A stretch of 64,000 nt of DNA from Clostridia bacterium (GTDB taxonomy: Bacteria; Bacillota; Clostridia; TANB77; CAG-508). The position numbers and the translations under genes are program-made. A model generated the notes under the pieces. It saw only the letters and a program-made list of their open reading frames with translations. It was not told the DNA's origin and made no database searches. Below, piece by piece: positions 2,548-56,498 of the stretch. The first letter of the stretch is position 1. Each line of letters begins with the position of its first letter. The DNA lies in assembly GCA_022797145.1 (NCBI GenBank), contig JAAWKA010000001.1:61745-125744 (forward strand), given 5' to 3'.

Positions 2548-4434
2548 TTACATTTTAAATATCCTCATTGAATTTAATACTGTAAGAAATGTAACTCCTG
2601 TATCAGCTAATATTGCTGACCATATTGGTGCTTTTCCCATTGCTCCCAATATTAAAACTAGTATTTTTATTGTTAGAGAAAATATTATATTAAACTTTAT
2701 AATATTCATACTTCTTTTAGAAATTTTTATTATCTCTGGTAATATAGATATATTATTGGAAAGCAGTATACCATCTGCTGTACTAGCTGCTATTTGTGAA
2801 CCTTCTCCCATTGCTATTCCAAAGTCACTTGCTGCTAGTACTGGACTATCATTTATTCCATCTCCTACAAATATTACCTTCTCTCCTTTTTCTTTTATTT
2901 TTGTTATCTCTTCTAATTTATCTTGTGGTAATAATTCTGCTTTTATTCTTTTTATTTTTAATTGTTTTTTTATTTTTTCTGCACTCTTTTTATTATCTCC
3001 TGTAAGCATTATTATATTTTTTATTCCTATTTTCTCTAACTGTTCTATTAATTCTTTTGTTTTAGTTCTTATTTGCTCTTTTAATGTTATATATCCAGCA
3101 ATTTTCCCTTCTATTGCCATATATATTGCATCTTCTGGAATTTCATCTTCCTTTTTTACTTTATATTTGTTCAATAATCTTAAATTTCCAAATACCACTT
3201 CTTTTTCTTCTATTTTTCCATAAATTCCATGTCCTGCTATCTCTTTATACTCTGTTATTTTTAACATATCTAAATTAACTGTATATTTTTCTATTGCTGT
3301 TGATATAGGATGATTTGACATTTTTTCTAGACTATACATATATTTTAATATTTCTTCTTTTGTATACGGTGAAAATGCTACTAATTCATTTATCTCCATT
3401 TTTCCTGTTGTTAGTGTACCTGTTTTGTCAAATGCTATTGTTGTAGTTTTTGATATATTTTCTATATGTTTTGTCCCTTTTATTATAATTCCTTTTTTTG
3501 ATATTGCTCCTACACATGAAAAAAATGATAATGGAACTGCTATTACTAAACTACATGGGCATGAAGCCACTAAAAATATTAATCCTCTTGTTATCCAAGT
3601 TTTATAGTCTAGTATTCCAAGACTTGCTGGTAATATTGCTAATATTATTGCTAATATTATTACAGTTGGAGTATATGTTTTTGAAAATTTAGTTATAAAT
3701 TTTTCTGTATTTCCCTTATTATTTTTGGCTTCATATACTAAATTTATTATTTGTGATGCTGTTGAATTTTTGGAATCTCTTATTACTTTGCATGTTAATA
3801 CTCCTGTCAGATTTATACCTCCAGATAATATTTCTGTATTTCTTTCTACATATTGTTGTTTGCTTTCTCCTGTTATTGCAGAAGTGTCTATATTTGATGA
3901 TCCTGATATGATGAGTGCATCTACTGGTATCTTTTCTCCTGGCTTTATTAATATTATATCTCCTACCTGTATTTCTTCAACATCTATTTTTTCTATTTCA
4001 TTATTTTTATTTATTTTATTTGCTATATTGGCTTTTATTTTTAGTATCTCTTTCATACTTTTTTGAGATTTATCTACTGCTCTATCCTCCAAAAATTCTC
4101 CCAGTCTATATAAAATTACAACCATACTACTTTCTATATATTCTCCTAAACAAAATGCTGCAAGTACAGCTATTGTCATAAGTGTATCTTCCTCAAAATT
4201 AAGTCTAAGAATATTTTTTATTCCAGATGCTAATAGCTTATACCCTGAAAATATTACTGATATTCCAATTAAAAATGTCTGTATTATTCTTTCTTGTATG
4301 ATAAATGACACTGCAAGCAATACTATTGCTATTATATATAAAGTTATTCCTAGTCTATTATTTTCTTTTTTTTCTTCAGTATGCATATGTTCTATCTTAC
4401 ATCCTTCATGTTCATGACAGTGTTTACAACCCAT
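2548..4434 (-). CDS. cadA: heavy-metal (Cd/Zn/Co-type) translocating P1B-type ATPase
   Basis: CPC motif (ASCPCSLV), DKTGTLT phosphorylation site, GDGINDSP hinge and a His/Cys-rich N-terminus MGCKHCHEHEGCKIEHMH. The start codon abuts the stop of the upstream ArsR-type gene. Confidence 0.9.
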   Translation of the reverse strand: MGCKHCHEHEGCKIEHMHTEEKKENNRLGITLYIIAIVLLAVSFIIQERIIQTFLIGISVIFSGYKLLASGIKNILRLNFEEDTLMTIAVLAAFCLGEYIESSMVVILYRLGEFLEDRAVDKSQKSMKEILKIKANIANKINKNNEIEKIDVEEIQVGDIILIKPGEKIPVDALIISGSSNIDTSAITGESKQQYVERNTEILSGGINLTGVLTCKVIRDSKNSTASQIINLVYEAKNNKGNTEKFITKFSKTYTPTVIILAIILAILPASLGILDYKTWITRGLIFLVASCPCSLVIAVPLSFFSCVGAISKKGIIIKGTKHIENISKTTTIAFDKTGTLTTGKMEINELVAFSPYTKEEILKYMYSLEKMSNHPISTAIEKYTVNLDMLKITEYKEIAGHGIYGKIEEKEVVFGNLRLLNKYKVKKEDEIPEDAIYMAIEGKIAGYITLKEQIRTKTKELIEQLEKIGIKNIIMLTGDNKKSAEKIKKQLKIKRIKAELLPQDKLEEITKIKEKGEKVIFVGDGINDSPVLAASDFGIAMGEGSQIAASTADGILLSNNISILPEIIKISKRSMNIIKFNIIFSLTIKILVLILGAMGKAPIWSAILADTGVTFLTVLNSMRIFKM

Positions 4435-54375: not shown

Positions 54376-54846
54376 TTAAACAAAACTATTCGCTTTTGTA
54401 TATAAAGGTTTATTATCACTTGTTCTCTTTACTGTTATATTTATAACTTCTCCTGAAATATAATTAACAATATATTCATCTGTTATATTGTCTATCTTCA
54501 TATGTTTTAATGCTGCCATATCTAATCTATAATATTCTTTATTGCTATAATTATCTGGTATATCTACAAGATTTATTCCTAAATTTGTTGCAATATCTTG
54601 TACTTCTTGCAAATTACATTTTATTCCTAATAAGTTTGAATTATCTTTTGTTAATTTGTATTTTGAATATTGTTGTAAAATAGCTTGTTGTATAACCTCT
54701 AAGTCTGAAATTAATTTAGAATCACTTGCTTTTTGGGTTAAATTTGTTGATACTGTTATTGCTATTGCTGATAAAATTCCCATTATTACTATTGTTATTA
54801 TTAATGATACTAAAGTTATTCCATTTTTTTGTTTGATATTTATCAT
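54376..54846 (-). CDS. type IV pilin/pseudopilin-like protein (prepilin-type N-terminal hydrophobic segment)
   Basis: The N-terminus KQKNGITLVSLIITIVIMGILSAIAI resembles the prepilin cleavage/methylation motif, but Ser replaces the usual Glu at +5. Confidence 0.55.
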   Translation of the reverse strand: MINIKQKNGITLVSLIITIVIMGILSAIAITVSTNLTQKASDSKLISDLEVIQQAILQQYSKYKLTKDNSNLLGIKCNLQEVQDIATNLGINLVDIPDNYSNKEYYRLDMAALKHMKIDNITDEYIVNYISGEVINITVKRTSDNKPLYTKANSFV

Positions 54847-55005
54847 TATTTCTCCTTTGTTTTAAAAAATTATAAATAAATCTTATCATTTTTCAATTTA
54901 ATTTACAACCTAAATTTATAATTTTACTATAAGATTTTTTTATTATCTATAAATTTGAATATAATCAATATTATATGGGTATAATTTTTATAAATGTTTA
55001 TATAT

Positions 55006-55081
55006 TCCTCTTTAGCTCAGTTGGTAGAGCGCTCGGCTGTTAACCGATAGGTCGTTGGTTCGAGTCCAACAAGAGGAGCCA
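55006..55081 (+). tRNA. tRNA-Asn (anticodon GUU)
   Basis: Acceptor tcctctt/aagagga, anticodon loop cuGUUaa, T-arm gttgg-ttcgagt-ccaac, encoded CCA. Confidence 0.9.
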
Positions 55082-55688
55082 AAAATAAAGAAATTTCTAA
55101 AACTTTATATATAGTTATCTCTTTATTTTCCCATATTTCTATCTTATCTACTAAAGATACAAGCATTATTCTTGTTATTTCTTTCATATTAACGAAGTCA
55201 TTAACAAGTTTATTAATGTTTATTGATGAATCTTCTTTTTCTTCTAGTTCTTGCAACTGCTTTATTCTTTCTTCTGCTTGTTTTCTATTTTCTATCTGCT
55301 TTGAATAAAGTCTTGTAAAATCTTCATCTTCAAATAGCCCATTGTATTTATCCTCATATAACTTGTCTATTCGCTTGTTTATATCTTCAACTTTCTTTTC
55401 TAAAATAAGAATTTCATTTTTTATATTAAACCTATCTTTGATTATCTTGTCTTTTGACGTATTGGCTATTTTAGTGTATTTTCCCTCATTTAAAAACTCG
55501 CTACATCTTTTCTTAATTTGTTCAATTACAAAATCTGTTACTTTTTCTAGATTGTTGCTATGCAGTATGCATAATCCTAATTGTGTGTTACTTGCATAAG
55601 TATTGTAGCTTAAATAAAATGTTATTTTGTTTGGATATTTTTGTGGTACTAGACTTAATTTATTTGATAAAAAATGGGGAAATTGCAT
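55082..55688 (-). pseudogene. C-terminal remnant of a large serine recombinase (catalytic domain missing, native stop lost)
   Basis: KDRFNIKNEILILEKKVEDINKRIDKLYEDKYNGLFEDEDFTRLYSKQIENRKQAEERIKQL...ITRIMLVSLVDKIEIWENKEITIYKV matches the coiled-coil and C-terminal pattern of large serine recombinases. The ORF then reads straight into the tRNA-Asn sequence. Confidence 0.6.
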
Positions 55689-56156
55689 ATATACTATAAA
55701 AATGATTTTATTATGCCAAATAGTTGTTCAAAGAAATATCAAAAATTTTGTAATAAAAACGAATATAATATACTAGAATCTTTACATACTAAAAATATAT
55801 TTCTTTCAATGAGTGATACCCCTAAAAGTAACGATTTATCAAGTATTTGTTATGCTGTACTTGATTAACTTTCTAAAACACTTAATTATCTAATTGTGGA
55901 ATGTATTTTATACCAACATCAAAAGTAGATGAAATTTATTGCAATTACCCAAAATGAAACTCAAAAACTTATAGAGGTTTAGGGACTTTTCAATCTTATA
56001 CTGAAAGATTAAAGCAATATAAGACTATGAGTGAATATAGAAGAACTTATCAGCAAAAATTTATGCAAGTTAGAAAAGATATGGAAACTAAGAAACTTTC
56101 TAAAGATTTTGAAACTTGGAAAAAACTTCACGTCATATAATTATCTAATTTAAAAT

Positions 56157-56185
56157 TTGACAAATAAAATTTATCTGTGTATAAT
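56157..56185 (+). promoter_or_regulatory. consensus sigma-A promoter TTGACA-17 nt-TATAAT
   Basis: -35 at 56157-56162 and -10 at 56180-56185. No protein-coding ORF lies downstream. Confidence 0.6.
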
Positions 56186-56191
56186 ATTAAT

Positions 56192-56280
56192 AGGAAATGA
56201 AACACAGAAATGTGTTGTCACTATAAATTGCTTAAGGCACTACATTGTCTGCTAAAACAAAATGTAGTGTCTTTATTTAT
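56192..56280 (+). ncRNA. candidate ~90-nt antisense sRNA (type I antitoxin candidate)
   Basis: Runs from the predicted TSS, 7 nt after the -10, to an intrinsic terminator (11-bp stem 56236-56271 plus tttattt). Its 3' part is complementary to the 3' end of the convergent peptide mRNA. Confidence 0.5.
56236..56271. terminator. hairpin shared by the convergent sRNA and peptide gene
   Basis: ggcactacatt-(14 nt)-aatgtagtgtc, with 11 pairs including one G-U. The U-tract on the plus strand overlaps the peptide stop codon at 56277-56279. Confidence 0.6.
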
Positions 56281-56381
56281 TCCTTATTTGTCCAAAGTAT
56301 GTATATAACTGTTAATAAGGCTACGTTTATAGTTATTGAAATCATAAATCCTATTATTAGGAATAGTAAAAAATCTACCAT
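56277..56381 (-). CDS. 34-aa hydrophobic peptide, candidate type I toxin
   Basis: Not in the ORF track. ATG at 56381 is preceded by GTGAGGTGG SD. Translation is MVDFLLFLIIGFMISITINVALLTVIYILWTNKE: one TM helix with a short polar tail. Confidence 0.55.
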   Translation of the reverse strand: MVDFLLFLIIGFMISITINVALLTVIYILWTNKE

Positions 56382-56469
56382 AAACACCACCTCACTTTCC
56401 CATAGTTAGAAACTATGAAGTTCAGTGGCAACACTCACATCTGCTTTATTCTCATTTCCTATAAAAAAT

Positions 56470-56498
56470 ACTATACTACAAATGTTATTAAAAAACAA
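56470..56498 (-). promoter_or_regulatory. promoter candidate TTGTTT-17 nt-TATAGT for the peptide mRNA
   Basis: Read on the minus strand: -35 at 56498-56493 and -10 at 56475-56470. This predicts a leader of about 80 nt containing the hairpin catagtt-aga-aactatg (56401-56417) next to the SD. Confidence 0.4.

Follow-up and report, generated by a model that had tools for sequence, protein, structure and literature searches.

Which function, if any, resides in the short unannotated block of DNA beside the transfer-messenger RNA (tmRNA) gene, ssrA, in the 64,000-nucleotide stretch of Clostridia contig JAAWKA010000001.1 analyzed here (hereafter the window; G+C content 25%)? The block is a cassette of ~350 bp at 56157–56505, made up of an open reading frame (ORF) for a hydrophobic peptide of 34 residues on the minus strand and a predicted small RNA (sRNA) gene that converges on it from the plus strand. 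A preliminary description of the locus, based on this single sequence, read the arrangement as a type I toxin-antitoxin module, and the comparative data support the sequence-level predictions of that reading. The ORF is conserved; a convergent promoter, sRNA, and terminator stand beside every copy and covary; the ribosome-binding site is predicted to be sequestered; the cassette occurs in multiple and tandem copies, often near tRNA genes, tmRNA genes, or integrase remnants; and the sRNA survives the loss of the ORF. Taken together, these observations suggest that the cassette probably behaves as a type I toxin-antitoxin pair of a previously undescribed family, for which we infer transcription, toxicity, neutralization, and the RNase involved.

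The peptide ORF and the convergent RNA

The candidate toxin ORF comprises 34 codons on the minus strand (56381 to 56280, stop codon at 56279–56277) and encodes MVDFLLFLIIGFMISITINVALLTVIYILWTNKE. It is preceded by the Shine-Dalgarno (SD) sequence GAGGTGG (56393–56387, 8 nt from the end of GAGG to the ATG), by a predicted leader of ~81 nt (56382–56462) whose start is placed from the position of the −10 box, and by a candidate promoter consisting of TTGTTT (56498–56493), a 17-nt spacer, and TATAGT (56475–56470), which is weaker than the antisense promoter. No gene call has ever been made for the peptide of the window. A search that used 42 codons of the ORF frame, counted from the upstream stop, returned 54 homologous protein clusters, and an exhaustive HMMER scan yielded 24 representatives at 50% identity. 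The relatives have the core M[VL][DEN]FL.FLIIGFMIS.TINVALL.VIYI.WTNKE in common, and none carries a name or a Pfam domain. The preliminary description had named a lack of ORF conservation among the results that would speak against a toxin gene. Instead, the ORF is intact in all 91 distinct cassette copies (the window plus the fetched loci, cited below by L numbers), with no frameshift and a length of 34–38 residues, except for one read-through of 45 residues. Among 51 distinct 34-codon alleles, the ratio of nonsynonymous to synonymous substitution rates (dN/dS) is 0.25 in the annotated frame versus 0.96 and 2.6 in the other frames, and entropy at codon positions 1, 2, and 3 is 0.39, 0.10, and 0.49. 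Between near-identical strains, five of the six substitutions in 620 bp fall within the ORF; read by codon, four are synonymous and the fifth is D3E. By these sequence measures, the candidate toxin ORF is a protein-coding gene under purifying selection.

Type I toxins are typically shorter than 70 residues, with a transmembrane segment and a C-terminus that is short and polar or aromatic (PMC2887945, PMC5961336). The predicted peptide shares these traits, with 34 residues, a single predicted helix, and the polar/aromatic C-terminus YILWTNKE. Its grand average of hydropathy is 1.69, it contains no proline, and AlphaFold2 models it as a single helix spanning residues 2–33 (predicted local distance difference test score 96.6). 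The residues L8, G11, S15, N19, L22, L23, and N32 are invariant; since G11, S15, and N19 are spaced i, i+4, and i+8, they lie on one face of the helix, and this invariant G-S-N face suggests a specific helix-helix contact. Tails in the family are TNKE, SNKQQ, or HKQ. Many relatives called elsewhere at 53–73 residues come from genomes whose leader has no stop codon, so that the SD and leader were translated as additional residues; in the window, the leader holds an in-frame TAA. A second, diverged subfamily of 38 residues, for example MIESTLIIMTYLLFYGIVGLAIINIVLLSIICWLLHKQ, was found only by means of the RNA model described below. Its members at L091:264–353 and L090:1376–1469 each have their own copy of the same sRNA and stand in tandem with canonical copies.

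The opposite strand carries the sequence TTGACA-N17-TATAAT (56157–56185), which matches the promoter consensus at 12 of 12 positions. It is the only perfect site of this kind in the 64 kb, where dinucleotide shuffles predict 0.06, and the only 12/12 site in a 2.3-kb scan. The same 12/12 promoter is present in ~75 of the 91 distinct modules and an 11/12 version (TTGACT) in nearly all of the others, always ~130 nt from the stop codon. The predicted antitoxin sRNA is ~91 nt long (56192–56282, plus strand; the start is again placed from the −10 box). It would consist of a 5′ end reading AUAGGAAAUGA, hairpin 1 (56198–56220, with the core ACACA-GAAA-UGUGU, present in the minimum free energy (MFE) folds), an A/U-rich linker, a terminator hairpin of 13 bp including one G·U pair (56234–56273), and the U-rich tail TTTATTTATT (56272–56281), which overlaps the stop codon of the peptide. 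The preliminary description had placed the ORF, its SD and promoter, the leader and its hairpin, the plus-strand promoter, the terminator hairpin, and the U-tract correctly; the 11-bp hairpin that it gave at 56236–56271 is the core of the full 13-bp stem. It had likewise seen no credible ORF on the plus strand, and the small plus-strand ORFs prove to be unconserved even among near-identical strains, as illustrated by a 32-residue ORF whose frame is altered by a 1-nt indel in L001.

The structure of the sRNA was probed by folding and by comparative analysis. Folding of the 94-nt plus-strand RNA, a check that had been suggested for it, gave a z score of −3.9 relative to shuffles. The covariance model built for the sRNA (R1) has one match in the window (56190–56284, 90.9 bits), and in the fetched loci it matches directly after every peptide ORF, with an end 4–5 nt within that ORF. 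When 21 diverse copies are aligned with MAFFT, pairing in the structure reaches 88.9%, compared with 21–55% for slid partners, 11 pairs are changed on both sides, and none of 500 shuffles reaches the observed pairing or covariation score. The R1-fitted alignment of 93 distinct sequences, which leans towards the structure and agrees with the independent MAFFT result, is 91.8% paired with compensatory changes in 16 of 19 pairs. Within the family alignment, the helix of hairpin 1 is 88% paired with six of seven pairs changed on both sides, as the MAFFT-only alignment confirms, and the terminator helix is 93.6% paired with compensatory changes in 10 of 12 pairs. Judged on this covariation, the plus-strand element is a structured small RNA gene. 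Scans with Rfam returned only tmRNA, tRNA, and noise for 54500–57500 (cmscan, E ≤ 10) and only tmRNA and tRNA for eight homologous loci at the gathering threshold.

The sRNA promoter is the strongest in the window, and the sRNA persists at loci from which the ORF is gone, which could indicate that the sRNA is itself the functional product, acting in trans, and that the small ORF is incidental or a leader peptide. Such a role is very unlikely given the frame-specific purifying selection, the conserved SD and its spacing to the start codon, and the absence of frameshifts from the 91 copies. Furthermore, the most variable parts of the sRNA are its hairpin stems, which are the parts complementary to the neighboring mRNA of the same locus; this variability fits specificity in cis rather than a common target in trans.

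The hairpin at 56234–56273 was initially thought to be a terminator shared by the two transcripts. It is indeed common to both RNAs, as its reverse complement forms a stem-loop in the 3′ untranslated region of the predicted toxin mRNA, but termination of the mRNA at this position is not supported. Across the family, the 10 nt following the stem contain 7.9 U (never fewer than 6) on the sRNA strand versus 4.3 on the toxin-mRNA strand, the latter being taken as near background for an AT-rich genome. With its U-tract on the sRNA strand only, the hairpin has the form of a canonical terminator for the sRNA only. The anticipated complementarity of the two 3′ ends holds at the sequence level over 58–91 nt: the sRNA and mRNA would form a perfect duplex of 58 bp (−92 kcal/mol) if the mRNA ended at the hairpin and of 91 bp if it read through. 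The cassette therefore has, in sequence, the antisense gene with extended complementarity that characterizes type I systems.

The toxin leader and the inverted repeat

The SD is invariant across the family alignment and appears to be held in a helix. The anti-SD GCCACU (56424–56429, minus strand) lies in the 5′ leader, and between it and the SD is the 7–8-bp hairpin CATAGTT-TCT-AACTATG (56417–56401, within an element at 56400–56418). RNAalifold pairs GCCACU with GGUGGU, and the GGUGG core is base-paired in the MFE fold of all 78 distinct leaders (99.7% of positions), with CCACU, CCACC, or UUACC as the partner in 70 of them. In the family alignment made with the leader model (R2), the anti-SD:SD helix is 89.9% paired. 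The stems of the enclosed hairpin vary among homologues (CAUAG/CUAUG, CAGAG/CUCUG, CUCAAC/GUUGAG), and five of its eight pairs are changed on both sides. The leader structure as a whole is 85.3% paired versus 35–55% when slid, and none of 500 shuffles reaches the observed values. Sequestered ribosome-binding sites are common, though not universal, in type I toxin mRNAs (PMC4147584), and the fold predicted for all 78 leaders is consistent with this trait.

The nucleotide sequence of the leader is also conserved across the family, and in most homologues a promoter-like site scoring 8–11 of 12 is located ~115 nt upstream of the ATG. Overlapping the toxin −35 box is the motif TGTTCGCTTG (56496–56505, minus strand), which is as conserved as the promoters across the 91 modules and marks the left edge of the conserved block. 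This motif is possibly an operator or UP-like element. A LexA/Cheo box was considered and rejected, as only a GTTC half-site could be read in the motif by eye. Pairing of the sRNA with the SD in trans, through its UUACCAC/UUGUCAC linker, was rejected as well: a test with the 26-nt SD region gave a mean of −11 kcal/mol (z −0.7), with a z score below −1.64 in only 18% of modules, compared with −17.5 kcal/mol for the cis anti-SD. RNAduplex runs of the linker against whole leaders produced meaningless long-loop duplexes (mean z −0.64).

It is proposed that the weak σ70-type promoter drives a minus-strand mRNA with a ~81-nt leader, from which the 34-residue single-helix membrane peptide, the presumed toxin, would be translated. 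Translation would be kept low by pairing of the anti-SD GCCACU with the SD GAGGUGG across the small hairpin. The perfect-consensus promoter on the opposite strand would drive the ~91-nt sRNA, with its two hairpins and a terminator U-tract overlapping the last codons of the ORF, and this abundant sRNA would destabilize or silence the weakly transcribed, structurally repressed toxin mRNA. By analogy with txpA/RatA and bsrG/SR4, the duplex may lead to RNase III-dependent decay and possibly to a locked SD-sequestering fold. The peptide would consequently be made only when the sRNA is depleted.

The leader and the sRNA also share a sequence. Their first ~40 nt are homologous and of the same sense: both open with AUAGGAAAUGA, and the likeness takes in a hairpin-like segment and reaches a motif of the UUGCCAC/UUACCAC type (for the sRNA of the window, UUGUCAC), with 79% identity over ~40 nt in 84 modules. 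In the DNA, the two start regions form an inverted repeat with 84% complementarity, one arm being the start of the sRNA (56182–56200, plus strand) and the other the start of the toxin mRNA (56452–56470, minus strand). Leader and sRNA align with a score of 15.0 when both come from one module, compared with 12.0 across modules and 4.4 in shuffles, and on this comparison the 5′ segments of the leader and the sRNA evolve in concert. As a result of the inverted repeat, read-through of the hairpin would give the toxin transcript 5′ and 3′ ends that are complementary to each other. In sequences that are phylogenetically related rather than independent, a qualification that applies to all of the figures in this and the next two sentences, the leader-tail duplex has a mean of −36.4 kcal/mol within its own module, −29.5 between modules, and −13.2 for shuffles (−30.9 in the window), and in 77 of 85 modules the duplex formed within the module is the stronger. 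A MAFFT alignment fitted to no structure shows the helix 79% paired versus 41–52% when slid, with 12 pairs carrying double changes, a number that one shuffle in 500 attains. Pairing is 91.9% in the terminal 13-bp helix, by GC, AU, and GU types with few A·C mismatches, and of the leader-sRNA transitions, 242 are wobble-compatible and 57 incompatible.

Two explanations can be offered for this likeness. Gene conversion between the inverted repeats is one; the wobble asymmetry, however, is what RNA pairing on the toxin strand predicts, unlike homogenization at the DNA level. The other is a tentative model, which we consider somewhat doubtful, in which the hairpin ends the sRNA only, the toxin mRNA reads through it as far as a position opposite the sRNA start, and the 5′ domain of the sRNA is a same-sense mimic of the leader that vies with it for the tail of the mRNA. 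In favor of this model, no U-tract follows the hairpin on the mRNA strand. The initial ~40 nt of the mRNA, with the anti-SD among them, would pair with the last ~40 nt; once bound, the sRNA would leave the anti-SD free to close the SD, and the resulting 91-bp duplex would be a substrate for RNase III. On this view, the module would be a compact RNA switch made of its own promoter and leader, duplicated in inverted orientation.

Distribution, decay and genomic setting

One genome from each of 185,579 species was scanned, and peptide-encoding stretches were present in 197 of these species-level genomes. The best 80 of these 197 are all metagenome-assembled genomes (MAGs) labelled Clostridia, Clostridiales, or Clostridium, for example Clostridium sp. 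CAG:245 and CAG:567, from the gut of humans, mice, rabbits, ruminants, and chickens. The conserved block spans from TGTTCGCTTG to the antisense −35 box, and similarity collapses beyond both edges. In L001–L004, contigs with the same smpB gene, the region is 99–100% identical to the window. One of these near-identical strains, L001 (GCA_949745545.1), is 99% identical from the cassette through smpB; left of 56147, a point 10 nt beyond the −35 box of the sRNA promoter, its DNA is wholly different (L001:1–826 and window 55322–56146 are unrelated); the cassette thus forms the fixed edge of a variable islet. Flanks are likewise unrelated among the other loci, and include a tRNA-Gly/tRNA-Cys pair upstream of plsX (the commonest tRNA setting), ssrA in either orientation, tRNA-Leu, tRNA-Thr, tRNA-Pro, and RhuM/topA. 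In ~24 of 60 scanned loci, the cassette lies within ~500 nt of the 3′ end of a tRNA gene or ssrA, in either orientation, and in L036 it alone occupies the 427 bp between tRNA-Trp and ssrA.

In the window, the region that holds the cassette is flanked by tRNA-Asn (55006–55081, plus strand) and the tmRNA gene (56716–57070, minus strand), with smpB next at 58322. Abutting tRNA-Asn is the minus-strand ORF 55082–55688, which matches positions 418–564 of 651 of the phrog_95 integrase profile (E = 8e-8) and, weakly, DUF4368; the N-terminal two thirds of the integrase are missing, and a search of solved structures gave no informative match for the fragment. This C-terminal remnant indicates that the decayed islet noted in the preliminary description is real. 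No second copy of the 3′ end of the tmRNA gene, as would form an island attachment repeat, was found in the window, and neither tblastn, blastn, nor the covariance model detected a second cassette there.

An AT-rich islet of this kind is also where a chance arrangement, or a decaying and functionless pseudogene remnant, might be expected. At 25% G+C, promoter-like hexamers and hydrophobic ORFs are common, with 21 promoter-like sites found in 2.3 kb compared with 14.6 expected. This explanation is refuted by the comparative data and retains only a negligible probability, as the cassette is a sharp-bordered block present in ~200 species amid unrelated flanks and displays both covariation and coding selection.

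The manner in which copies decay bears on whether the peptide is harmful. Five sRNA copies persist with the ORF truncated or gone (L014:2679–2770, L046:3400–3494, L077:3644–3747, L090:4308–4396, and L058:4886–4982), four of them with an 11/12 promoter as read from the printed sequences. At the L014 orphan, the terminator of tRNA-Cys is followed directly by what is left of the ORF, its last codons (..WTNKE*); past a RhuM-family gene, at a distance of 1.3 kb, stands a complete cassette. In L040 (2880–3240), and in no other copy, unrelated DNA has taken the place of the sRNA promoter and first nucleotides; there the toxin −35 box reads CTATTT instead of TTGTTT and an SD-proximal GAAAG has become GATAG. 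The sRNA therefore appears to outlive loss of the ORF and not the reverse, as would be expected for a harmful product and not for a benign one; this pattern in the sequences is supportive rather than decisive.

Duplication is frequent as well. Several contigs contain two to four cassettes within a few kb, with hairpin stems that differ among the paralogues and would for that reason insulate them from one another; L091 has four cassettes in 4.4 kb. Type I loci are known to duplicate in tandem (PMC2887945). Two of the tandem cassettes in L091 are preceded by a nearly exact repeat of ~200 nt (L091:1006–1353 and 2257–2610); it appears as a spurious reverse-strand ORF of 115–117 residues and has no Rfam match.

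Several observations weigh against a toxin-antitoxin role. The decay pattern rests on few events, namely the five orphan sRNAs and one copy with both promoters lost. The peptide ends in a nearly neutral tail, TNKE, whereas the tails of the Clostridioides difficile toxins are rich in Lys (PMC5961336), and neither the peptide nor the sRNA has detectable homology to a known toxin or antitoxin family. As the hairpin is followed by no U-tract on the mRNA strand, the mRNA may end at another site, with a different length of overlap. Finally, tblastn gave no match in phage and plasmid collections, and among 2.9 million viral contigs (IMG/VR) there are two matches (L096 and L097); with the module nearly absent from these sets, a role in stabilizing mobile elements is not evident.

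The nearly uncharged tail and the near absence from phage and plasmid collections would also suit a small membrane protein that is not toxic, such as one that modulates a transporter or sensor, and whose expression is tuned by a cis-antisense RNA. A dN/dS of 0.25 and the invariant G-S-N face would be natural for such a protein, and in many species the cassette occupies the same site between tRNA-Cys and plsX and looks vertically inherited. We nevertheless regard this explanation as unlikely. No conserved partner gene adjoins the cassette, the flanking genes differ among loci, and the cassette occurs in multiple copies and tandem arrays and has diverged paralogues. Moreover, the antisense promoter is much stronger than the sense promoter, the SD is predicted to be sequestered, the sRNA is kept after ORF loss, and the sole copy that lacks the sRNA promoter has lost the toxin −35 box as well. 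A type I toxin-antitoxin pair accordingly remains the preferred reading of the cassette.

Some further features of the surroundings were observed. The listed ORF 55082–55688 continues into the tRNA-Asn gene, so that its last residues are the tRNA read in reverse. Between the cassette and the 3′ end of the tmRNA gene is a GC-rich, terminator-like hairpin, CGTGTACAGAGCGTGTACG (56646–56667), which is probably the ssrA terminator read from the other strand; the tag peptide of the tmRNA is AKNNNELALAA. Neighboring genes encode a type IV pilin-like protein with an N-terminal methylation motif (54376–54846, minus strand), a GtrA-family membrane protein (57181–57597, plus strand), and an M23 peptidase (57636–58247, plus strand). 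In both L096 and L097, the cassette (3983–4212; sRNA 72 bits) is just upstream of a 66-residue membrane-peptide ORF and a 282-residue ORF, which lie close to the end of the contig and, by eye, resemble a holin and an amidase endolysin. Mobility of the kind seen in miniature inverted-repeat transposable elements was considered and rejected, as the ends of the conserved block, read by eye, are not mutual inverted repeats.

Relation to known type I systems

The T1TAdb database lists 24 type I families, nearly all from cultured Proteobacteria and Firmicutes (PMC8594479). If the proposed reading is correct, the cassette would represent a type I family that, to the extent covered by the scan, occurs only in uncultured low-GC gut Clostridia; its definition relies on sequence alone, and the comparative support is unusually clean for the peptide and the RNA alike. 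The covariance model and the peptide profile are ready for use in annotating such MAGs, the ~350-bp cassette is compact enough for work in a surrogate host, and the G-S-N helix face would provide a natural set of peptide variants for studies on mode of action.

The peptide and the sRNA were compared with known families by several routes. A Pfam hmmscan (E ≤ 10) with the peptide of the window and 21 family members found no toxin family, scans against NCBIfam and PADLOC gave no match, PHROG gave no match better than E = 0.015, and a full-text literature search for the peptide motifs found nothing relevant. The homology to Fst or Hol_Tox that had been suggested at the outset was not borne out, as neither produced a hidden Markov model match in the profile searches. 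In Gram-positive type I families, the antisense RNA partially overlaps with the mRNA's 3′ end (PMC8594479, PMC4147584), and the 4–5 nt by which the sRNA match enters the ORF at all loci give the cassette the 3′-side partial overlap of the TxpA/BsrG type. By peptide homology, it belongs to neither the TxpA nor the BsrG-BsrE-BsrH family, and its sRNA falls in none of the 13 Rfam families of type I antitoxin RNAs (PMC8594479). The likenesses to characterized systems are consequently ones of architecture.

The hok mRNA adopts a 5′–3′ fold-back structure. The cassette shares with hok/sok only the concept of a structured toxin mRNA that controls translation together with an antisense RNA (PMC4147584). 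That system is Gram-negative, Sok binds the 5′ region at mok, and there is no relation to the cassette in sequence or layout.

Among Clostridia, the modules of C. difficile, such as CD2517.1/RCd8, are type I systems with overlapping convergent transcripts, often located in prophages or islands (PMC5961336, PMC7699646), and resemble the cassette in these respects. Their toxins have 50–53 residues with a Lys-rich C-terminus and are encoded next to clustered regularly interspaced short palindromic repeat (CRISPR) arrays, and their RNAs overlap by 131–283 nt (PMC5961336). In contrast, the candidate toxin has 34 residues and a TNKE tail, lies beside tRNA and tmRNA genes, and shows no sequence similarity to them. 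The neighbors seen at the cassette loci are tRNA genes, tmRNA genes, plsX, and others of that sort, with no CRISPR array noted among them, although CRISPR adjacency was not specifically searched.

The par locus of the Enterococcus faecalis plasmid pAD1 (fst/RNA II) is similar to the cassette in its toxin of ~33 residues, its very small antitoxin RNA, and a hairpin common to the convergent transcripts (PMC4147584). In par, the direct repeats DRa and DRb make the 5′ ends of the two RNAs complementary, which blocks ribosome binding (PMC4147584). Because the repeats of the cassette are inverted, the 5′ ends of its RNAs are alike rather than complementary, and a par-like 5′ interaction can be rejected. 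The predicted pairing between the 5′ domain of the sRNA and the SD region is no stronger than that of shuffled sequences (z −0.7). Without a Pfam or NCBIfam profile match and without complementarity of the DRa/DRb type, the cassette falls outside the Fst/Ldr family.

TxpA has 59 residues and RatA is ~220 nt long. The txpA/RatA pair, located in the skin element of Bacillus subtilis, resembles the cassette in having convergent transcripts that overlap only at their 3′ ends and in its association with a mobile-element remnant, and it is controlled by RNase III-dependent decay with no complementarity to the ribosome-binding site (PMC4147584). It differs in that there is no homology and in that the overlap of the cassette is shorter (58–91 nt), reaching only the last two codons.

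A parallel in control is offered by bsrG/SR4 of the B. subtilis SPβ prophage, which consists of a hydrophobic toxin of 38 residues and a convergent antitoxin over the 3′ end of the mRNA (PMC3834814). In the bsrG mRNA, the SD lies in a helix and the 5′ nucleotides pair with a 3′ segment (helix P1); when SR4 binds, the 5′ strand is released and the SD helix grows from 4 to 8 bp, and SR4 thereby acts on both decay and translation (PMC3834814). The cassette similarly combines a predicted sequestered SD and a 3′ overlap with a leader whose 5′ end is complementary to the segment that the sRNA would bind. There is no similarity in peptide or RNA sequence, SR4 is roughly twice as long as the sRNA of the cassette and has four stem-loops, and the reported bsrG/SR4 overlap reaches further into the mRNA. 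A further difference is that the 3′ strand of bsrG P1 lies upstream of the terminator, whereas its counterpart in the cassette lies downstream of the hairpin, so that a fold-back would need read-through. The apparent mimicry between leader and antitoxin could nonetheless broaden the type of dual control described for bsrG/SR4.

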